Source: a bacterium | GTDB taxonomy: Bacteria > UBA8248 | Assembly: GCA_963692865.2 (NCBI GenBank) | Contig: OY843592.1 | Span: 3,264,001-3,328,000, forward strand | Length of the DNA stretch: 64,000 bases | Reading direction: 5' to 3' | In this document: positions 44,087-54,057 of the stretch, piece by piece | How positions within the stretch are numbered: the stretch's first letter is position 1 | How the letters are laid out: each line of letters starts with the position of its first letter | Translations under genes and position numbers: made by a program | Notes under the pieces: generated by a model | Told to the model about the DNA's origin: nothing | Databases searched by the model: none | Seen by the model: only the letters and a program-made list of their open reading frames with translations

Positions 44087-44238
44087 CCTTTTTCCTCCAA
44101 GCCGAAAACCCTTCGTTTTTCAGTCATATCATCGTATTTTTCTGTCATCCTTAAAAACGCATCATATCAAATTCCGCTTCTCTTTGCGCGGCCAGGATGC
44201 TAGGCTCGCTTTTCTCCTTCATAAGCACGGGATTCACC

Positions 44239-45498
44239 ATGGGCATGACCCTGACGGAAAAAATCATGGCCAGAGCCTCCGGCAGGGACGAGTTGCGGGC
44301 CGGGGAGATCGTCTACCCGGAGGCCGATCTGGCGACGATTCACGACCTCTACGTCGTGGAAGCCGACCGCCAACTCGCCGAACTCGGCGTGGAGCGCCCC
44401 TGGGACCCGGAGCGGGTGTTCGTATGCTTCGATCACGACACGATTCCCCAGACCGTCGCGGTCGCGAATCGCGCCAAGCAGATAAGGGAGATCGTGAAAC
44501 GCTGGGGCGTCAAGCACTTTTTCGGTCCCGGCCGCGGGCAGGGTCACGTGTTCCCGATGGAAATCGGCCTTATCAAACCCGGCGCATGCGTCCTCGCCTA
44601 TGACATTCACGTCACGAACTACGGCGCGGTGGGTTGTCTCGGCTTGGCGCTCGTCTTCGAGTTCCCCGCCGTGCTCGCCATGGGGAGTCACTGGCTCAAG
44701 GCGCCGGAGACGATACGAATCGATATAAGCGGAAAACTCCAGCCGGGTGTGGGAATCCGCGACGCCGCCGCGCGCATCATTCACGAGATCGGCCCCGACG
44801 CCGCCGATTACCGCGTCTTTGAATACACCGGAGGGGCCCTCACCCATCTGGGGGTCGATGCGCGGGTGAAACTCTGCAACCTGCCGATAGAGATCGGGGC
44901 GAAAAGCGCCATCGTTCCAGCCGATGAGGTCGTGGCCGAATGGATGCGCGAGAGAAACATCGAGGGATTCGAGGCGATGCAGAGCGACCTTGACGCCGTA
45001 TTCGCGGAAACATACGGGTTCGACCTCTCCGAAATGGAACCCACCGTAGCGCTTCCTCCGAGACCCGAGAACGTGGCCCCGCTTGGTGAGGCCCTGGGCG
45101 TCCCGATCCACGCGGCGTATCTGGGTTCATGCGCGGCGGATCAGTATGAGGACATGGCCGAAGCAGCCGGGATTCTGCGCGGGAAAAGGCTGGCGCCGGG
45201 CGTGCGGATGATCGTGACGCCCGGCAGTCGGGAGGTGCTCGCCCGCTGCGTCGAGGATGGATTGATGGACGTTTTCTGCGAAGCGGGCGCCATGGTGGGC
45301 CCGCCCGGGTGCGGCCCCTGCGCCATCGGCAGGGGAGGCCCCCTGGCGGACGGGGAAACCTGCATCGCCACGGTGACGCGAAACGACGTGGGGAGGATGG
45401 GGAGCCGGAAAGCCCGAATCTATCTCGCGAGTGCGGCTACGGTGGCGGCTTCCGCCGTGAGGGGCGAGATAGCAGACCCCAGGGAATTTCTGGCTTGA
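44239..45498 (+). CDS. Aconitase-family large subunit (LeuC/HacA-like, divergent)
   Basis: MTLTEKI, FDH, GSC and PGCGPC Fe-S ligands, GRMG. Confidence 0.88.
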   Translation: MGMTLTEKIMARASGRDELRAGEIVYPEADLATIHDLYVVEADRQLAELGVERPWDPERVFVCFDHDTIPQTVAVANRAKQIREIVKRWGVKHFFGPGRGQGHVFPMEIGLIKPGACVLAYDIHVTNYGAVGCLGLALVFEFPAVLAMGSHWLKAPETIRIDISGKLQPGVGIRDAAARIIHEIGPDAADYRVFEYTGGALTHLGVDARVKLCNLPIEIGAKSAIVPADEVVAEWMRERNIEGFEAMQSDLDAVFAETYGFDLSEMEPTVALPPRPENVAPLGEALGVPIHAAYLGSCAADQYEDMAEAAGILRGKRLAPGVRMIVTPGSREVLARCVEDGLMDVFCEAGAMVGPPGCGPCAIGRGGPLADGETCIATVTRNDVGRMGSRKARIYLASAATVAASAVRGEIADPREFLA

Positions 45499-45508
45499 GG
45501 AACTCACC

Positions 45509-46036
45509 TTGAACTGGACGATGCAGGGGCGCTGCTGGAAATTCGGAGACAACCTCTCTCTCGACGACGACATTCTCGAATTCGCAAAGGTCTTCGTGGG
45601 GGGCGTGCGCGTATCGGACCCCGAATACCTGAAACAACACGTCTTCACGAATCTTATCCCCGATTTTCCCGAGCGCGCGGAACCGGGCGACATCGTGGTG
45701 GCGGGAAAGCGGTTTGGACAGGGGAATCCCCACATATACGGCCTGCTGGGCATGGCGGGCTTAGGGCTGGGCCTCATCGCGGAGAGCGTTCCCCATTTCA
45801 CCTACCGGATGATCGTGGCGGCGGGGCTGCCCGCGCTTCCTTTCTTCACCGGTATCGGGGCGCATGTGGAAGATGGAGACGAGTTGCGCGTCGATTTCGA
45901 ATCCGGAGAGGTCGAGAACCTGAGTCGTGGCGTGCACTGGAAGTCGGAGCCTCTGCCCGATGCGCTGAGAGAGATCATCGAAACTGGCGGATTTCTCCCT
46001 GCCCTCAAAAAACGCCTCAATGCCTCTCTTTCATAA
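45509..46036 (+). CDS. Aconitase-family small swivel subunit (LeuD-like, divergent)
   Basis: GRCWKFGDN, GDIVVAGKRFG, IIETGG. Confidence 0.85.
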   Translation: MNWTMQGRCWKFGDNLSLDDDILEFAKVFVGGVRVSDPEYLKQHVFTNLIPDFPERAEPGDIVVAGKRFGQGNPHIYGLLGMAGLGLGLIAESVPHFTYRMIVAAGLPALPFFTGIGAHVEDGDELRVDFESGEVENLSRGVHWKSEPLPDALREIIETGGFLPALKKRLNASLS

Positions 46037-46132
46037 GGCGAGCAACTTAAAGAGCCTCCTGCAAATATCCCCTTACGCGACTCTGCTTCTCGGATGGGTT
46101 TTTGAGATTTTTCCCCCAGTCCAAAAATTTTT

Positions 46133-46141
46133 TGCTATAAT
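46133..46141 (+). promoter_or_regulatory. Extended -10 promoter upstream of the Rieske gene
   Basis: TG-C-TATAAT in an AT-rich context 54 nt before the ATG. Confidence 0.55.
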
Positions 46142-46194
46142 TTTTGACGTGACGTTTCGCTTCAGCGCATGACTTTTCGCAGTGGGGGCAGGCG

Positions 46195-46650
46195 ATGGCG
46201 TCATCGGAAACAGAACCAGGACTTGAACGGCGAGGCTTCATCGCCACGCTGTGCATGGCCGGCGGCGTCATCGTAAGCTACGGCACGGCGGCCGTCTACG
46301 GACTGCGCTATCTCTTCGGGAGGCAGCTTCCCCCCCGCATGACGCAGGTGCTCGTCGGCTCTCTCAACGACATCCCCGACGGCGGCAGCATCCTCAGCCA
46401 GGATTTGAGCGGCAGGAAATTCCTGCTCGTGCGCGCGAATGATTCGGTGCGCGCGTTTTCGACCGCGTGCACGCACCTGGGATGCCAGGTGTATTGGCAG
46501 GGAGACAAAAAGGTTTTCTTTTGCCCTTGCCACAACGGTTTCTTCGACGCGGACGGAAAACCCACCGCGGGTCCCCCGCCGACTCCTCTCGCCCGGTACC
46601 CCGTGGAGGTGCGCGGGGCGAGCGTTTTCGTCACCATGCCCGAGGCCTGA
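46195..46650 (+). CDS. Rieske 2Fe-2S subunit of a Rieske/cytochrome b complex
   Basis: ERRGFI Tat-like anchor; CTHLGC and CPCHNG boxes; GPP.PL. Confidence 0.93.
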   Translation: MASSETEPGLERRGFIATLCMAGGVIVSYGTAAVYGLRYLFGRQLPPRMTQVLVGSLNDIPDGGSILSQDLSGRKFLLVRANDSVRAFSTACTHLGCQVYWQGDKKVFFCPCHNGFFDADGKPTAGPPPTPLARYPVEVRGASVFVTMPEA

Positions 46651-46653
46651 GCC

Positions 46654-47709
46654 ATGAACAGCCGCTTGCCGCATTGGGTGGAAGAACGGATTCCCTTCGA
46701 TTGGGACCACCTCAGACACATCACGAGCGAACCCATACCGCGCCACCTGAAAAAATGGTGGTTCTGCGTGGGCGGCACGCCGCTGTACCTGTTCTTCATC
46801 CAGATCGTCACAGGGATAGCCCTCACCTTCTACTACGTTCCCGAGCCGGGAAAGGCGTATGAATCGGTGCGCCACATCACCGAGGCCGTGCCCTTCGGCT
46901 GGTGGATTCGCGGGATACACCGATGGTCGGCGGAACTGATGGTGGTGACCGTCATCCTCCACATGATGCGGGTGTTCTTCACGGGCGCATACCGCAAGCC
47001 ACGCGAGATCAACTGGCTCATCGGCATGGGCCTCCTCATCACCGTGTTCACCTTCGGGTTCACGGGCTATTCCCTGATTTACAACCAGCTTTCCTACTGG
47101 GCGGCCGTGGTGGGCACGAACATCGCCGCGGCGGTGCCCGGCGTAGGGCCCTATCTGGCGGGCTTCATTCGCGGAGGTCCAGTCATCAGCGCGAACACGC
47201 TGACGCGCTTCTACGTGCTTCACATCGGAATCTTGCCGACCACCGCGTTCGCCCTGCTCGCCCTCCACATTTTCTTCATCCGCATCCACGGGGTGAGCGA
47301 GTTCATCGACCCCAAGGACGAGGAGGCGAAAAAAGACAGATTCTTCCCGTTTTTCCCGGACCATTTTCTGACCGAGGTGGCCCTGGGCGTTTTTCTCATC
47401 TTTCTGGTCAGCCAACTGGCCATCATCTTCCCCGCCCAGATGGGAGAGCCGGCGAACCCGGCGGTCACGCCCGAACACATCAAGCCGGAGTGGTATTTCT
47501 ACCCCGTTTTCCGCTGGCTGAAGCTGTTTTCCTTCGAGGCCGGCATCATCGGGGCGATTCTCGTCGTCATCCTCATGTTCGCCTGGCCGTGGGTGGACGC
47601 CGCCATCGAACGCCGCTGGCCCGGGCGTGACATCAGCGTGTACGCCGGCATCGTCGCCGTCGTAACGATGACGATTTTCCTCATCATCGAGGGTTTGTCG
47701 GGACACTAG
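46654..47709 (+). CDS. Cytochrome b (b6 plus subunit IV fused type)
   Basis: Heme His in IHRW...LHMMR and LH...LH; PEWY; WFCVGG. Confidence 0.94.
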   Translation: MNSRLPHWVEERIPFDWDHLRHITSEPIPRHLKKWWFCVGGTPLYLFFIQIVTGIALTFYYVPEPGKAYESVRHITEAVPFGWWIRGIHRWSAELMVVTVILHMMRVFFTGAYRKPREINWLIGMGLLITVFTFGFTGYSLIYNQLSYWAAVVGTNIAAAVPGVGPYLAGFIRGGPVISANTLTRFYVLHIGILPTTAFALLALHIFFIRIHGVSEFIDPKDEEAKKDRFFPFFPDHFLTEVALGVFLIFLVSQLAIIFPAQMGEPANPAVTPEHIKPEWYFYPVFRWLKLFSFEAGIIGAILVVILMFAWPWVDAAIERRWPGRDISVYAGIVAVVTMTIFLIIEGLSGH

Positions 47710-47736
47710 ATTCGAGACGCCGGAAGGGAGGGAGCC

Positions 47737-49077
47737 ATGCAGCTGCAAGCCAAGCAATGGATAGTCGCTATCTTGAGTCTGTTCTTTCTCGGCTCCCTGA
47801 TCACCGTCGGCCTCATCGAGAGCGAGCGCCTCGTGCCCGAACGGGAGAAAAAAGCCGTCGTCACGGCCAAAAACGAAGGGTGCGTGAACTGCCACACGGA
47901 GAAATCGCCGGGCATCGTCGCCCAGTGGAAAGACAGCCGCCACGCGCAAATCGGCGTGGGCTGCCTGGACTGCCACGAAGCCGAGAAGGGCGACAAGGAC
48001 GCCTGGCAGCACGAGGGGTCCCTGGTGGCCGTCATCGTATCGCCCAAGGATTGCGCGAAGTGCCACGTCCAGCAAGCGGAGGAGTTCACGGCCAGCCACC
48101 ACGCCAAGGCGGCGCAGTTCATCGGCAGCCTGGACAACTTCCTGGGCGTCGTCGTCGAGGGCGTGCCGGCGGCGGTGGGCGGATGCCAGAAATGCCACGG
48201 CTCCACCGTGAAGGTGCTCGCGAACGGGAGGCTCGACCCCGCCACCTGGCCCAACACGGGCATGGGGCGCATCAACCCCGACGGCAGCAACGGCGCTTGC
48301 TCGGCCTGCCATGCGCGCCACCAGTTCTCTCCCGCGCAGTCGCGGCGGCCCGAGAACTGCGGAAAATGCCACATGGGGCCGGATCACCCCCAAATCGAGA
48401 TATACGAGGAATCCAAGCACGGAATCGTCTTCCACGCGCGCGAGAAGGAGATGAACCTCGACAGCAAGAGCTGGGTGGTCGGCAAGGACTACACGGCGGC
48501 GCCCACCTGCGCGACCTGCCACATGAGCGCGGCGCCGAAGCTGCCGACCACGCACGACGTAGGCAAGCGCATCAGCTGGACGCTCAGGCCCGTCATCTCC
48601 AAGAAACTCGAGAACTGGGAGCAGAAACGCGACGACATGAAGAAGGTGTGCGTCGCCTGCCACGCGCCCTCGTTCGTGAACGCCTTCTACACGCAATACG
48701 ACAACGTTATCGACCTGTATAACGAGAAATTCGCGCATCCGGCGCAGAACATCATGAACGAGCTCAGAAAACAGAAGAAGCTCACCTCGGCGCCGTTTGA
48801 CGAGAAGATCGAGTGGACCTTCTTCGAGCTGTGGCACCACGAGGGCCGACGCGCGCGGATGGGCGCGTCCATGCAGGGGCCCGACTTCACGCAGTGGCAC
48901 GGGTTCTACGAAGTCGCCAAGCACTTTTATTTCAAGTTCTTACCCGAAGCCGAGGAGCTCCTCCCCGGCGTGAGCGAGCAATTCGTCACGGGCAGGCACC
49001 ACGCCTGGCGCAAGGGCATGAGCAAGGCGCAGATCCAGCAGATGCTCGACTTTTACGAAACGCGGTACGGGAAGTAA
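47737..49077 (+). CDS. Membrane-anchored octaheme hydroxylamine oxidoreductase-like cytochrome c
   Basis: Eight CxxCH (CVNCH, CLDCH, CAKCH, CQKCH, CSACH, CGKCH, CATCH, CVACH); CHMGPDHPQ.EIY.ESKHG. Confidence 0.9.
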   Translation: MQLQAKQWIVAILSLFFLGSLITVGLIESERLVPEREKKAVVTAKNEGCVNCHTEKSPGIVAQWKDSRHAQIGVGCLDCHEAEKGDKDAWQHEGSLVAVIVSPKDCAKCHVQQAEEFTASHHAKAAQFIGSLDNFLGVVVEGVPAAVGGCQKCHGSTVKVLANGRLDPATWPNTGMGRINPDGSNGACSACHARHQFSPAQSRRPENCGKCHMGPDHPQIEIYEESKHGIVFHAREKEMNLDSKSWVVGKDYTAAPTCATCHMSAAPKLPTTHDVGKRISWTLRPVISKKLENWEQKRDDMKKVCVACHAPSFVNAFYTQYDNVIDLYNEKFAHPAQNIMNELRKQKKLTSAPFDEKIEWTFFELWHHEGRRARMGASMQGPDFTQWHGFYEVAKHFYFKFLPEAEELLPGVSEQFVTGRHHAWRKGMSKAQIQQMLDFYETRYGK

Positions 49078-49509
49078 AAACAACGGGATAAGAACGATAA
49101 CCTCGTCTTTTTCTTTCCTGTTCGGGGCGCATTTGCCCGCATTTGCAATGCCCGCGAGGGGGCCGAGATACGCTATGGTGCGTCCGCGCGGGAAATCGTT
49201 ACGCGGCGGTTTTCCTTCCATTTATTTATCGAAAAACATCGTGAATTTATCTGAATTTATACATATTTATTCGATATTTATCGAATTATCCGGGAGCCTG
49301 AAGATTCCGCGCCGTTTCCACCTTCTCTCGAACCGCTCGAAACGGATGCTCCCCCGGCGCGCGGGCATCCGGCGAAACGCCACGGAACGACCCTTCCCGC
49401 CCCGGCTCCTTCCCTCTAAAAAAACTACCCTTGCCCGTTGCGCTATGCTAACTTGCTTTTCCGGGCAGCCGGTTGTATTCGAACATCCCGTTCAGGGAGG
49501 AATTAAGCC

Positions 49510-50240
49510 ATGAGCAGCCATCCTTTCGACAACTAGTTCCACGTCACCCCCGAGCACAAGGAGCAATTCCGGCGCGACGGCTTCGTCAAGCTCGAAGGGT
49601 TCTACAACCCTGAAGTGGTCGAGGCGCTGCTTGCGCGCGTCGAAGCCGAAATGGACCGGGGGGTGGCCGGCGGTATAACGGGCGATGAAATGTTCAACCG
49701 GGCGAAGTATGACTTCGCAGGCGAAAGAACGGAAGTCTATGAACTGCTGGAGCGGCCTTACCTGCGAACGGCGCTTACGGATCTGGTCGAATGCGACCTC
49801 TTTCTGACCTTCGAGCAGTGCTTTGAAGTCGAAAAGAACGTCAGCAAGGGATTCCCCTGGCACGTCGGCGCGCAGAGCTTCGGCTTTCAACCCGCTGAGG
49901 AATTCGCGTGCACGCTGTGGGCGCCGCTGCATCCCGTGGACACGAAGGGCCAGCGGGGCGGGATGGCTTATGTCCCCGACCGCGTCATATCGGGCGATTT
50001 CATCTTCCGCCAGATCGAGCCGGCGGTCGTCTCCACGCTGGAGGCCAAGGAGCAAGCCGGCGTCAGGACGAACGTAGATGAATACTTCGCCATGCGTTCG
50101 GGGATCCTCAATTCGCCGACCATGTGCGAGATACTCGAGAACCACCAGGTCGAAGACGATTTCAAGCCCGGCGACGCGCTCCTGTTCAACAAAATGGTCG
50201 TCCACCGGAGCATAATGCTCGGCGAGGGCGCGCTTCCCAG
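49510..50240 (+). pseudogene. PhyH-like Fe(II)/2-oxoglutarate enzyme with HxG motif; in-frame TAG at codon 9 and lost C-terminus
   Basis: GGGAGG RBS, MSSHPFDN*FHVTPEHKEQFRRDGFVKL...FPWHVG...LWAPL...GGM...PGDALLF...VHRS. Confidence 0.8.
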
Positions 50241-50343
50241 GCTGTTTGAAGATCGCCCGCGCAAACGCGTGAGGGCGCGCGCCGCAGGCCCGGGCGGGCG
50301 CAACTGCGATGAGCTTCCGAGCGGATTCCCGCACCCCCTTGAG

Positions 50344-50536
50344 GGGGTTGTTCAAAAAGCCCCCTCCGCCTCACCCTGAGTAGCGGCGAAGCCGCGTATC
50401 GAAGGGCGAAATTCGCGTCCCGCCGGTTGGATGCGTTCCCCCATCCTTCGATACGGCGCTTGCGCGCCTACTCGGGATGAGGAAAGAGGCGTCGGCGGTT
50501 TGCGGGGATCGAAGACGGGGGTTTTTCAACAGCCCC
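50344..50536. mobile_element. MITE-like element with module B cargo
   Basis: GGGGTTGTTCAAAAA ... TTTTTCAACAGCCCC; further right end near 50591. Confidence 0.82.
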
Positions 50537-50714
50537 TGACAAGGGAGGTCGGGAGGGTTGCTCTCTTGACAAAGGCTTTTTCAACAAGCCCGTATGCGGC
50601 CCCTGCGGGAGAATCCAGACACCCAAGCGACGATCCAAAAAGGCGCCGGGCGTGATAAGGTGAGACCATCGAAACCCGAGAAAAATCCGTGAACACCCAC
50701 CCGGAGAACGCCAC

Positions 50715-51743
50715 ATGAACGAGATGGACGAATTCGAATTTTTTCTGGAGAAACCCTGGTCGGACGGCCTCCCCGTGGTGACGCCCACCGAAGAGCGCGT
50801 CGAGCGCATGCTGGCGGGAACGTCGAGATCGCCCGACGAGGCCGTGACCCCCGTTCCCCCTCTGGACGAGGTCGCCACCGTTCGAGACATCGCCGCCCAC
50901 GCCGTCATGGCCGGATGCAAACCCGAGTACCTCCCCGTCGTCATCGCGGCTCTGGAACTCATCGTGGAGGAGCCGCTCAACCTGCGCGGCGTGCAGGCCA
51001 CCATGCACAGCGTCGCGCCCCTCCTCATCCTGAACGGCCCATATGCGAAGAAGATAGGCGTCACGGGCGGGCAGGGATGCTTCGGCCCCGGCTTTCGGGC
51101 GAACGCCACCATCGGCCGCGCCGTCCGCCTGCTTCTGCTCAACCTGGGCGGCGGAATCGCGCGCGTCGCGTGCATGAGCATCTACAGCCAGCCCTCGCGC
51201 TTCACGTTCTGCGTCGCGGAGAACGAGGAGGAAAGCCCCTGGGAGTCGCTCGCCGCATCGCGCGGCTATGGTGAAGATGAAGACGTGATCACCGCCGTCA
51301 TGGTGGAAAACCCCCACATCGTCTTCAACGACGTGGACCGCGACCCCGAGCGCCTGCTCGTCTCCCACATGGACAACATGGCGGCGATGGGTTCGTGGCC
51401 CATCTGGGTGAGGTCGGACACCGTGCTCGTCCTCTCCCCCGAGCACGCGCGCCTGTGCGCGGGAGCCGGCTTCTCGCGCGCGGACGTGCACGCGTACGTC
51501 TCGGAGAACGCGGGGCGCAGGGTGGGCGAACTCAAGCGCGGCGGCCCCTGGCGGGAGGACAAGCCGAACGGGCGGTGGGAGTACCCGGTGGACAGGGAGG
51601 ATGACGACTTCTTCATCCGCGTCGTGAACGAACCCGAAGACCTGCACCTCATCGTCGCGGGCGGCGAGGGGCCCCTCGGCGCGGTGATGCCCGGCTGGAA
51701 CGGCGCCAGCCGCGCCGTGCACCGGGCGTACGAGGCGACGTGA
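50715..51743 (+). CDS. Paralog of the UGSC-partner protein
   Basis: WSDGLPVVTPTEERV, MAGCKPEY, RANATIGRA, ENEEESPW shared with 2409-3462. Confidence 0.9.
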   Translation: MNEMDEFEFFLEKPWSDGLPVVTPTEERVERMLAGTSRSPDEAVTPVPPLDEVATVRDIAAHAVMAGCKPEYLPVVIAALELIVEEPLNLRGVQATMHSVAPLLILNGPYAKKIGVTGGQGCFGPGFRANATIGRAVRLLLLNLGGGIARVACMSIYSQPSRFTFCVAENEEESPWESLAASRGYGEDEDVITAVMVENPHIVFNDVDRDPERLLVSHMDNMAAMGSWPIWVRSDTVLVLSPEHARLCAGAGFSRADVHAYVSENAGRRVGELKRGGPWREDKPNGRWEYPVDREDDDFFIRVVNEPEDLHLIVAGGEGPLGAVMPGWNGASRAVHRAYEAT

Positions 51744-51793
51744 TGATCCGGTAAGGGCCGCATAAATACGGTATGGACCCACTCCTCCCCCGA

Positions 51794-52737
51794 GGGGTTG
51801 TTGAAAAACCCTATCCGCCTCATCCTGAGTAGCGGCGAAGCCGCGTATCGAAGGTCAATCGCAACCAATGCGGGAGCGAATGCCTCTCGCCTCTGCGCGA
51901 GGCATTCGACCCTCCTCGCCCTTCGATATAAACGCTCCTTTCTCGGGGCTGTTGAAAAACCCGGAGAGAGACAATTTGTTTGTAGGTGACAACCCCTCCT
52001 CGGGGTTGTCCCACACATATCATGCGACCCTGATTTTCGCCTCCGCAAGGCGGGCCGCATGATATGTCAGACATATATGTCTGACCTACAAAAACCGTTC
52101 CTCCCCGGTCGCGTAAAACACTCGCTCATCAGGACTTTTTCAACAGCCCATTCTCAGTCGCGTTTGACCTTCGGCGGCTGCTCAGGGTGAGGAAAAGGAC
52201 GTTGGCGGCTTGCCGGGGCCGCAGATGGGGTTATTCAACAACCCCTTTTAGGGTATCGCTTTTACCCCCCTGACAAGGGGGACAGGGGGGGCTTTTTCGA
52301 CTGTTCCTTGCGGGCCGGTCGGGGTTCCCCCGTAGTGGGCCGTTCACGAAAACAACCCACTACAAAACCATCGCCCCCTTTTGCCTATGCTCGTCATTCC
52401 GGCGAAAGCCGGAATCCATTTGCGGACGCGGGTGAATGAACGACGGCGTTTCATTCCCCGACGATGCGCGGGAATCCTGACGAAAGGCGTAAAAATGGAT
52501 TCCGGCTTTCGCCGGAATGACGGTGGTTTTCCCGCATCAAGGAGACTTTTCAACAACCCCTTGAGGGTCGGGCGGATACACAGGCCCGCCGCTGCAAAGC
52601 CCCAAAAATCGTAATGAACCCGTAGGGGAGTACCCGCGTGTCCTCCCCCCCACGTCGTTCTGGTCGTGAGCCTGGTGTAGAGGCCGGAATGACGGCGGTG
52701 GTCAATTCCGATCGGGGAGGGGTTTTTCAACAACCCC
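51794..52737. mobile_element. Nested and stacked composite elements (modules A, B, C, E)
   Basis: Left ends 51794 and 51945; right ends 52149, 52245, 52560, 52737. Confidence 0.83.
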
Positions 52738-52755
52738 TGATCGATCGCGTTCGAT

Positions 52756-54057
52756 CTACAACTCGATCACGTCCATCGCGTCGGGGTTGAGGACGCGCGG
52801 GCCGTTCTCCTCCACGATCACCTGGGGGCCGAAGACCATGAATATCCTGTCCTCGTGCGCGGCCTTGATTTCGACTGCGAGGGCCATGCCCGCCTCCACC
52901 TCGAAATCCTCCAGGAAGCCGTAGCGGCCCCCCGCGAGTTCTTGCCATTCGGGGTTCTCGGCGAGGCTCCCCTCCACGTAGGGTTCGCGCCAGGGGAAGT
53001 TCCGGGGAATGTCGCCCGCGCATATCGTCGTCATGGGCGGCTCGATGCCGTCGAGCCCCACCCCGTGCACCTGGGGGATTTCGTGATAAAACCCGCTCCG
53101 CAGGATCGCCCCGTTCGAGGCGCGGTCCACCTCGCTCCACGGCGTGCCGGGCTTCAAGGCGTCGAGCGCGGCGTGGAGACACTCTCGCACCGCCTCATGA
53201 ATGGGCTTGTAGTCGTCATCCATCGGCCCCAGCGACATCGAGGTGTGCGGGTGGCTCCAGTAGCCCCCGTAGCGCGAGTAGTAGCCGATGCACAGCATGT
53301 CGCCCGCCCGCAGAATCCTGTCCGTGGGTCTCCGGTTCACCGGATAGCCCTTGCCCGAGCACATGATGAGCCAGCTGTCGCGCCCCGCCTCGGCGCCCGC
53401 GCGCAGGCTCGCGCTGAAAAGCTCCGCGTACACCTCGCTCTCGCGCACCCCCGGACGGCAGCAGCCGAGCACGGCGTCTATCTCGATGTTCACCATCTCG
53501 GCGGCCTTCTCCATCATCGCTATCTCCTCGGCGCTCTTGATGATGCGAAGGCGCGTGAGGATGTCCGAGGCGTCGGCGAACTGCGCGTCCGGCAGGAGGC
53601 GTTTGAGGTTCTGGTACGTCATGTATGGAATCGCGCCCTCCGCGCCGTATCCCCCGCCGATGAGTCCGACGACGCCGATTCTCCCGCTCTCGTAGCCCAA
53701 CTCCTTGATGGCGTCTGCCGCCACGATGCTCACCTTCCCCTCGTGGCCCCGGTAGCGCACCCCCTCGAAGCACGACTCGGTGTACCACTTGCCCCAGTTC
53801 TGCAGGAGCCAGAAGGTCACGGGCGCGCCGTTTCGGGGAAACACCATGCTGCGCTCGCCGTAATCGCCCCCGTCGAGCCAGCGGGCGTTGCCGTTGCCGT
53901 TCGAGCCGCGCCCGACCACGATGAGGCAATCGAGCCCGCGCTCGTCCATGGCGGCGCGCACCGCGCTCCACCGCCTGTCGCGCTCCTCGGCGGAAAACGC
54001 TGCCGCCGCATCGCCCGTGCGGCCGTCTTTCGGGAAAAACCTGGGGTCCGTTACCAT
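52756..54057 (-). CDS. M24 (Xaa-Pro peptidase/creatinase) family protein
   Basis: FS..ERDRRW..VR..M, LRIIKSAEEI, YGGYW, HGVGL. Confidence 0.85.
   Translation of the reverse strand: MVTDPRFFPKDGRTGDAAAAFSAEERDRRWSAVRAAMDERGLDCLIVVGRGSNGNGNARWLDGGDYGERSMVFPRNGAPVTFWLLQNWGKWYTESCFEGVRYRGHEGKVSIVAADAIKELGYESGRIGVVGLIGGGYGAEGAIPYMTYQNLKRLLPDAQFADASDILTRLRIIKSAEEIAMMEKAAEMVNIEIDAVLGCCRPGVRESEVYAELFSASLRAGAEAGRDSWLIMCSGKGYPVNRRPTDRILRAGDMLCIGYYSRYGGYWSHPHTSMSLGPMDDDYKPIHEAVRECLHAALDALKPGTPWSEVDRASNGAILRSGFYHEIPQVHGVGLDGIEPPMTTICAGDIPRNFPWREPYVEGSLAENPEWQELAGGRYGFLEDFEVEAGMALAVEIKAAHEDRIFMVFGPQVIVEENGPRVLNPDAMDVIEL

Follow-up and report, generated by a model that had tools for sequence, protein, structure and literature searches.

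In Nitrospira moscoviensis and N. japonica the gene of an octahaem nitrite reductase has upstream of it two genes that code for a Rieske protein and a cytochrome b; in the parts of the reports on which we draw, the three genes are described as highly co-expressed with nitrite as sole nitrogen source (the octahaem gene of N. japonica being off with ammonium), the authors hypothesise a coupling to the quinone pool and a nitrite reduction that yields ammonium, and in a quarter of such genomes a NapC gene replaces the Rieske/cytochrome b pair (PMC6311188, PMC6606698, PMC12342949). Modules of this kind are not new, having been published for Nitrospira, Caldithrix, Nitrospina and Kuenenia; the background offered in an earlier note on this DNA ('anammox bacteria and some anaerobes') holds for the anammox bacteria (Kuenenia) but is understated, since the same sources also place the module in the aerobic nitrite oxidisers Nitrospira and Nitrospina and in Caldithrix (PMC6311188, PMC6606698, PMC12342949, PMC3578206, PMC5317091). 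Here we describe a three-gene operon of the same composition, situated at positions 46195-49077 (+ strand) of a 64-kb window (the whole stretch of DNA analysed: 64,000 nucleotides, nt, of contig OY843592.1, assembly GCA_963692865.2, lineage UBA8248). We consider that it probably encodes one membrane complex, a quinol:nitrite (or hydroxylamine/nitric oxide, NO) oxidoreductase, in which an octahaem cytochrome stands in the place of cytochrome c1/f.

The three-gene operon

The operon consists of three same-strand open reading frames (ORFs; lengths in amino acids, aa):

46195-46650, + strand: Rieske [2Fe-2S] subunit, 151 aa (Pfam PF00355, E 1.1e-13)
46654-47709, + strand: cytochrome b, 351 aa, b6-like and subunit-IV-like parts fused (PF00033, E 1.7e-52; PF13631; PF00032, E 2.3e-12)
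47737-49077, + strand: octahaem c-type cytochrome of the HAO family (reductive, epsilon-Hao/IhOCC-like), 446 aa (PF13447)

The intergenic gaps measure 3 nt (the cytochrome b ATG starting 3 nt past the Rieske stop codon) and 27 nt, a Shine-Dalgarno sequence (GGGAGG) precedes the octahaem gene, and the GC content at third codon positions (0.78-0.89) is typical for the genes of the window. The ORFs, their gaps and their family matches thereby confirm the tight three-gene operon that the earlier note had perceived. Because the spacing is tight and the same order recurs in 10 other genomes, the three genes are likely co-transcribed. No gene for a c1/f-type cytochrome, mono- or dihaem, is found in the operon, the octahaem protein being its sole c-type cytochrome.

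The first two products carry what is expected of a Rieske/cytochrome b (bc1/b6f-type) pair, namely the cluster boxes, the membrane anchor with its twin-arginine (Tat) motif, four histidines and PEWY. In the Rieske subunit the twin-arginine motif (R12-R13) is followed by a single hydrophobic anchor (residues 16-34) and by the boxes CTHLGC (92-97) and CPCH (110-113), with the RR pair, C92, C97 and CPCH invariant across 10 partners; its top NCBIfam matches, which fall below cut-off, are b6-f iron-sulfur subunits. Cytochrome b has seven hydrophobic segments, and the nearest NCBIfam models (both below cut-off) are the ExtP b-type cytochrome (230.7 bits, cut-off 290) and cytochrome b6 (222.6 bits, cut-off 325). 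Four histidines (His89, His103, His190 and His205), which presumably ligate haems bL and bH, do not vary among 11 sequences, nor do P278, W280 and Y281 of PEWY (278-281), the presumed Qo motif. Cys38 (in FCVGG), kept in 8 of 11 partner sequences, may occupy the position where b6-type proteins bind haem ci. Two partner pairs from related loci depart from this pattern: the Rieske proteins L019:4478-4921 and L023:1586-2032 have CTDLGC as their first box (Asp replacing the cluster-ligand His), and the cytochromes b L019:4933-5961 and L023:2048-3070 have PPWY instead of PEWY, with the Cys38 equivalent missing in L019 and not in L023, which suggests that the cluster or the Qo site is altered at these loci.

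The octahaem cytochrome

The third product is an eight-haem protein of the HAO family, in agreement with the earlier note: it matches the Multi-haem_cyto profile (PF13447) with E 4.9e-29 (101.9 bits, cut-off 21.9), it holds eight CxxCH motifs (starting at residues 49, 76, 106, 150, 188, 208, 258 and 305) within which every one of its 16 cysteines lies, and its eight PDB matches at E<=0.01 are all IhOCC, HAO, HOX or HDH chains. The best of these is IhOCC of Ignicoccus (4qo5; E 7.4e-45 with phmmer, 3.7e-66 with a profile), and further matches (E 1e-22 to 1e-18) comprise HAO/HOX of Brocadia, Kuenenia and Nitrosomonas, the reductive Kustc0458 and HDH; a profile made from 24 relatives ranks the PDB matches in the same order. 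Three sets of signature residues bear on its activity:

48184-48198, + strand: fourth haem motif CQKCH, residues 150-154 (C150, C153 and H154 invariant in 24 sequences)
48382-48387, + strand: Asp216-His217 in CGKCHMGPDHP (hidden Markov model, HMM, alignment to 4fas/1fgj)
48871-48897, + strand: Met379-x7-Trp387 (SMQGPDFTQW; M-x7-W in 81/81 sequences)

By analogy with HAO and IhOCC, in both of which haem 4 is catalytic according to the source passage (PMC9250108), the haem of CQKCH is presumed to be the five-coordinate catalytic haem 4. The invariant histidines outside the motifs suffice for seven distal ligands. Asp216-His217 is aligned to a D-H pair of Nitrosomonas HAO that likewise comes after this haem motif (ch.G.dH), and CxxCHxGPDHP is kept in 80 of 81 family members (the octahaem proteins of the 80 best related loci, to which the locus comparison extends, together with that of the window). 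In HAO, the Asp-His pair is the active-site acid/base.

The third signature bears on the direction of the reaction. Reductive epsilon-Hao proteins are reported to have Trp at the position of the cross-linking Tyr, with a conserved Met eight residues before it (PMC8940962, quoting Haase et al. 2017), and in the published passages four epsilon-HAOs without the Tyr acted in vitro as reductases of nitrite and hydroxylamine and showed negligible oxidation, while the Tyr-less Kustc0458 makes NO from nitrite (PMC8042395). The Met-x7-Trp signature fits a membership of the window protein in this reductive, cross-link-free HAO branch, and the reductive direction is favoured because there is no tyrosine cross-link. 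An oxidative P460-type HAO/HDH was rejected on the same grounds, all 81 sequences having Met-x7-Trp where the cross-linking Tyr would stand; this position is matched by signature only, the HMM alignments to HAO ending at about residue 351-366, short of the Tyr region. Two further identities were tried and rejected: an NrfA/TvNiR-type octahaem nitrite reductase (ONR; no CxxCK, NrfA reached with just E 0.0031 by profile and with E>=0.2 by Foldseek) and HDH (NCBIfam hydrazine_HDH at 96.6 bits against a cut-off of 900). The family is often annotated as 'hydroxylamine dehydrogenase', which is said to mislead nitrogen-cycle surveys (PMC8940962).

Membrane anchor and complex model

Directly upstream of the octahaem gene, Rieske and cytochrome b genes stand in the same tight or overlapping order in 10 of the 80 related loci (labelled L), whose named taxa are Myxococcota, Thermodesulfobacteriota, Cloacimonadota, Planctomycetota and Pseudomonadota. 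The linked loci, and the segment of the window protein that sets them apart, are:

Linked loci: L001, L009, L019, L023, L045, L056, L061, L068, L074, L080
47743-47832, + strand: N-terminal membrane anchor of the octahaem protein, residues 3-32 (helix in the AlphaFold2 model)

The octahaem protein has one hydrophobic segment (residues 9-27, modelled as the helix 3-32), in which a basic residue is followed by a very hydrophobic helix (shared pattern K..IVA.LS..FL..L..VG.IE), the first haem motif coming 19-23 residues later. The window and every one of the 10 linked loci have this anchor; among the other 70 loci it occurs in 1, L020, the sister of L023, on a contig that breaks off 360 nt upstream of the octahaem gene and has a partial cytochrome b match at its cut end. 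The remaining loci have signal-peptide-like N-termini, the N-terminus being unreadable in four (L021, L042, L050 and L067). The strict form of the pattern picks out 9 of the 81 sequences, every one of them linked (L019 and L023 carry a variant), and also 20 of the 120 best database relatives. We have not met this co-occurrence of anchor and partner genes in the portions of the literature on such modules that we drew on, no search having been aimed at it. Together with the lack of a c1/f gene, it bears out the claim of the earlier note that a membrane-anchored octahaem fills the c1/f slot.

That note had also proposed complex modelling as a check, which gave a positive outcome: in a model of three chains (cytochrome b, Rieske and octahaem residues 1-70, each with an alignment) the anchor helix docks on cytochrome b and the Rieske helix, with scores of 0.65, 0.65 and 0.62 against 0.17 for the best of three controls. 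The runs share >=95% of their contacts, the partner has a predicted local distance difference test (pLDDT) value of >=72, and the mark applied is reached by 116 of 157 solved complexes and by 2 of 215 mismatched pairs (counts that are rough for own alignments and for three chains). The modelled helix contacts residues 80-84 and 235-257 of cytochrome b and residues 13-35 of the Rieske subunit, and the control in which cytochrome b was replaced scored 0.17. Domain content, motifs, gene order and anchor co-occurrence are direct observations, and the complex model passes; the model supports, short of showing, that the anchor holds the octahaem on the Rieske/cytochrome b core. The anchor helix could hence serve as a simple sequence test for octahaem copies that are likely hard-wired to a bc-type complex.

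Family size and redox partners

The octahaem family is large, with at least 8000 clusters at 90% identity and at least 583 species genomes matching; in a 50%-identity library, 2740 clusters match at E<=0.001 and 430 at E<=1e-30. The 120 best matches are 58-89% identical and bear depositor names such as Nitrospirae, Acidobacteria, Deltaproteobacteria, Zixibacteria and Ignavibacteriales, among others, while the related loci, from several phyla, are ~50-66% identical to the window octahaem.

Besides the linked loci, L028 has a Rieske/cytochrome b pair ~4.7 kb downstream of the octahaem gene, and nine loci forming one well-supported clade encode a tetrahaem protein of ~200 aa directly downstream of it:

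Tetrahaem loci (Desulfomonilaceae, Syntrophaceae, others): L054, L060, L062, L063, L065, L066, L069, L076, L077

This tetrahaem protein, which had no NCBIfam match in the two cases examined (L062 and L054), is a possible NapC/NrfH-like donor. NapA, above curated cut-offs, directly follows the octahaem in 3 of the 10 linked loci (L045, L056, L080) and also in L048; elsewhere its neighbours include a hybrid-cluster protein (L052), NarJ-like proteins (L030, L058), Crp/FNR regulators (L011, L044), an Rrf2 regulator (L017), rubrerythrin (L059, L075) and an AhpC-like protein (L011).

No cytochrome b-octahaem fusion was found in 10 long representatives scanned out of the 150 best. Four of these long relatives (P0242, P0257, P0264 and P0336) have an N-terminal CopD-like membrane domain (PF05425) fused before the octahaem, to which P0242 and P0257 add a cytochrome b5-like domain (PF00173); such a fusion would be a third way of tying the octahaem to the membrane.

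Proposed function and rival explanations

We infer the substrate, the product, the direction of electron flow and the proton coupling of the complex as follows. Nitrite, which would be reduced to ammonium, is the most likely substrate; hydroxylamine and NO may be converted in addition or in its place. Quinol would bind at the Qo site (PEWY) of the b6-type cytochrome b; the first electron would pass to the cluster of the Tat-exported, membrane-anchored Rieske protein, and the second would return to quinone through haems bL and bH (possibly also ci) in a Q cycle. From the Rieske head, electrons would enter the octahaem, which its own N-terminal helix would fix to cytochrome b and the Rieske helix, and seven bis-His haems would conduct them to haem 4, the presumed site of substrate reduction, where Asp216-His217 would supply protons. 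With a running Q cycle, the reduction of nitrite would become electrogenic, in contrast to that served by NrfH- or NapC-type donors. The role may be any of three, assimilatory (as proposed for Nitrospira), respiratory (as for Caldithrix) or protective. A quinol:N-oxide reductase coupled to a Q cycle had already been put forward in the earlier note; the reductive part of that proposal fits (no Tyr pattern, Met-x7-Trp, Asp-His, and napA, hcp, Crp and Rrf2 genes in relatives) and the wiring is supported, but the proposal repeats a published hypothesis.

Several observations weigh against the complex as here proposed. For the octahaem, AlphaFold2 gave a mediocre model (pLDDT 67.2, predicted template modelling score 0.47), built haem-free on the alignment of 24 relatives, and the 11 Foldseek matches at E<=0.001, although all are HAO-family chains, reach TM-scores of just 0.19-0.28; because the model is poor and these scores low, it is motifs and HMM alignments, rather than a structure, that underlie the haem coordination and the Tyr/Trp equivalence. 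In two of the controls of the complex model the anchor helix had been swapped for unrelated natural proteins, and if these are soluble, part of the contrast stems from hydrophobicity. No adjacent redox partner (within ~400 nt, same strand) is found in 61 of the 80 loci, a count in which a few partners may be missed, as ~10 of the 80 have <1.5 kb of upstream sequence. Furthermore, 8 changes are needed to place the Rieske/cytochrome b label on a tree of the 81 octahaems (mean 10.5 in shuffles, 7 of 500 being as low as 8), at least 5 of them forced by starred branches, and a single origin of the link was rejected on this account; since most loci are without a partner and the link is scattered on the tree, the partnership appears facultative in the family and repeatedly gained or lost. 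No nap, nar, nir, hcp or nitrogen-assimilation genes are found near the operon in the window, and the -10-like motif upstream of it (see below) does not recur at the corresponding place in L001, the closest relative. Moreover, HAO-family enzymes are trimers and bc-type complexes dimers, two symmetries that the proposed complex would have to combine. Rieske clusters usually have a higher potential than the haems of such reductases, so that electron transfer would include uphill steps.

Several other explanations of the operon have to be weighed. NapA genes directly after the octahaem in 3 of the 10 linked loci, a Caldithrix Rieske/cytochrome b pair that was considered as a Nap donor too (PMC5317091) and the multihaem c subunits known from bc-type complexes of anaerobes (PMC3578206, PMC5317091) would all suit an octahaem that is a mere electron wire, non-catalytic, replacing c1/f and feeding separate periplasmic reductases (NapA, others). 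We regard such a wire as quite improbable: the D-H pair (80/81) and Met-x7-Trp (81/81) are kept in anchored and soluble forms alike, the ~50-66% identity spans the whole catalytic core (beyond what a wire needs), Tyr-less relatives reduce nitrite and hydroxylamine in vitro in the published account (PMC8042395), and the window has no napA. The opposite direction of flow, in which the octahaem would oxidise hydroxylamine, NO or another donor and pass electrons through Rieske/cytochrome b to the quinone pool, has in its favour that the bc-like operon of Nitrospina gracilis, with its octahaem neighbour, is discussed for reverse electron transport (PMC3578206) and that the closest named relatives of a gene neighbouring the window operon are labelled Nitrospinae. 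The signature of a cross-linking Tyr is absent, Tyr-less HAOs are reported to have negligible oxidising activity (PMC8042395) and no amo, nxr or hzs genes are found in the window, which leaves reverse flow with very little probability.

A protective function, in which the complex would chiefly detoxify hydroxylamine or NO in nitrosative stress rather than serve nitrite respiration or assimilation, is in our view unlikely as the main role, albeit compatible with nitrite reduction. A detoxifying role has also been discussed for IhOCC. The window operon stands alone among catabolic genes, the octahaem elsewhere adjoins the hybrid-cluster protein, rubrerythrin, AhpC-like and Rrf2 genes listed above, and detoxification is discussed for hao and hcp (PMC8940962); against this, a dedicated quinol oxidase of the Q-cycle type would be a costly donor for a stress enzyme, and both the NapA linkage in relatives and the Nitrospira expression data, as reported (PMC6606698), point to routine nitrite reduction.

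Returning to the quinol:nitrite oxidoreductase, we tentatively suggest (at somewhat less than even chances) that the anchored octahaem is a stoichiometric third subunit and not a diffusible client, forming an electrogenic 'complex III-nitrite reductase', with ammonium production from nitrite coupled directly to a Q cycle, here and in the anchored forms of several other phyla. If true, the N-terminal helix would be the mark separating complex-bound from soluble, NapC/NrfH-served forms, and the architecture would have to fit an enzyme family that forms trimers to a bc core that is a dimer. In nitrite ammonification of the NrfHA type, the reductase step itself is commonly regarded as non-electrogenic. 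With an octahaem coupled to Rieske/cytochrome b, nitrite reduction would yield more energy, and such coupling would also explain the recurrence of the module in nitrite oxidisers, ammonifiers and anammox bacteria.

Expression signals

Two candidate signals flank the operon:

46133-46141, + strand: extended -10-like element TGCTATAAT, 54 nt upstream of the Rieske start, without a recognisable -35
49190-49215, + strand: weak terminator-like hairpin, 113 nt past the operon stop (11 pairs, 4 G-C)

The pattern TGNTATAAT was matched once in the whole window (0.14 matches expected by chance; at least one in 11 of 100 shuffles), and a sigma-70 scan of 45900-49700 returned 0 sites, no matching -35 being found. 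The extended -10 promoter that the earlier note had assigned to the operon therefore stands in so far as the sole TGNTATAAT match lies upstream of the Rieske gene, and fails in that it has no -35 and is not conserved in L001; for these two reasons we grade TGCTATAAT as a plausible promoter candidate and not as a demonstrated promoter. Neither a conserved promoter nor a conserved operator was definable from the sigma-70 scan and the L001 comparison. Immediately 3' of the element lies a short direct repeat (TGACGTGACGT, 46142-46160; not conserved in L001) that could be an operator or a product of chance, and a repeat search of 45900-46300 returned no repeats. Terminator-like matches are not enriched in the region (7 against 4.0 +/- 2.1 in shuffles), a further weak one lying inside the end of cytochrome b (47658-47673), and the next + strand ORF starts >500 nt downstream of the operon. 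At gathering score, Rfam gave one match in the window, a tRNA at 18467-18549 (- strand), and nothing near the operon.

Genomic surroundings

The neighbouring genes of the window encode coenzyme A (CoA) ligases and transferases, an acyl-CoA dehydrogenase, amino-acid and peptide ABC transporters, an amidase and similar proteins. The 'apparently heterotrophic organism' of the earlier note accords with these catabolic genes, which are also its sole basis, while the nearest named relatives of a PrpE-like neighbour are labelled Nitrospinae/Nitrospinota; this protein is 93% identical to proteins that depositors named 'Nitrospinae bacterium', and the window lineage is probably Nitrospinota-related. 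In L001 the operon occupies the same place, between the PrpE-like gene and an M24 peptidase gene, and relative to L001 the window has two extra flanking stretches: one upstream (44197-46036), which is an aconitase/LeuCD-like gene pair, and one downstream (about 49078-52735) of 3.6 kb.

Downstream of the operon, positions 50344-52757 are dense in short palindromic repeats of the type GGGGTTTTTCAACAACCCC (at least six copies), and a perfect 30-nt inverted repeat is found at 52392-52421 and 52493-52522; both look like intergenic elements of the repetitive extragenic palindromic (REP-like) kind. An ORF bracketed by these repeats (50715-51743, + strand, 342 aa) had no match in Pfam or NCBIfam, nor had L001:7528-8823 (431 aa).

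Comparison with known systems

The closest solved relative of the octahaem, IhOCC of Ignicoccus hospitalis (4qo5), has eight haems and no P460 cross-link, as expected for the window protein; it differs in having D-V instead of D-H after the sixth haem motif and in the Trp of the C-terminal signature, which lies three residues earlier. IhOCC is archaeal, is listed as an octahaem nitrite reductase, and has no Rieske/cytochrome b neighbour reported for it in the source passage (PMC9250108). The distance to IhOCC (E 7.4e-45) is much smaller than that to the solved HAO-like chains of Kuenenia (E about 1e-20).

Epsilonproteobacterial epsilon-Hao has a NapC/NrfH-type cytochrome as its partner. Unlike the window protein it is described as periplasmic and tied to nap clusters, with no Rieske/cytochrome b partner; by published description it shares the eight haems, the lack of a cross-linking Tyr and Met-x7-Trp (PMC8042395, PMC8940962).

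In R/b-3 of Kuenenia stuttgartiensis (kuste4569-4574) the HAO-like Kuste4574 is a component of a Rieske/cytochrome b complex, as proposed here; as described, the cluster differs in having six genes with further subunits and NO as the proposed product, and Kuste4574 has no proven oxidative function and is thought to reduce nitrite, an activity that the source calls still unproven (PMC12485887). The bc-like operon of Nitrospina gracilis, an organism probably of the same phylum as the window lineage, combines a Rieske protein and a b6-type cytochrome b with a neighbouring 'atypical octaheme cytochrome c' as sole candidate c subunit, and according to its authors Kuenenia and Methylomirabilis have kept this operon structure (PMC3578206). 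Cytochrome b is split in N. gracilis and fused in the window.

In Caldithrix abyssi (Cabys_2558/2557/2556) the genes for Rieske, cytochrome b and a Tyr-less epsilon-Hao stand in a row, as in the window, and its authors propose that quinol electrons pass from Rieske/cytochrome b to epsilon-Hao; nap genes are adjacent, as in L045, L056 and L080, whereas the window has none, the tetrahaem NapM is favoured as mediator, and no octahaem anchor is mentioned in the portion of the report on which we draw (PMC5317091). By their published description, the octahaem nitrite reductases of Nitrospira (ONR/OCC) show the same order of Rieske, cytochrome b and periplasmic octahaem genes; the nearest ESM-Atlas cluster of the window octahaem is mostly Nitrospirota, which we treat only as a lead to a possible kinship of the two octahaems. 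As reported, the Nitrospira genes sit in a nitrogen-assimilation cluster (PMC6311188), whereas those of the window do not. The NapC-type tetrahaem alternative described for Nitrospira (PMC12342949) is mirrored by the 10 Rieske/cytochrome b and 9 tetrahaem loci found here. For the window itself the result is modest: it adds one more well-preserved example to the module shared by these systems.

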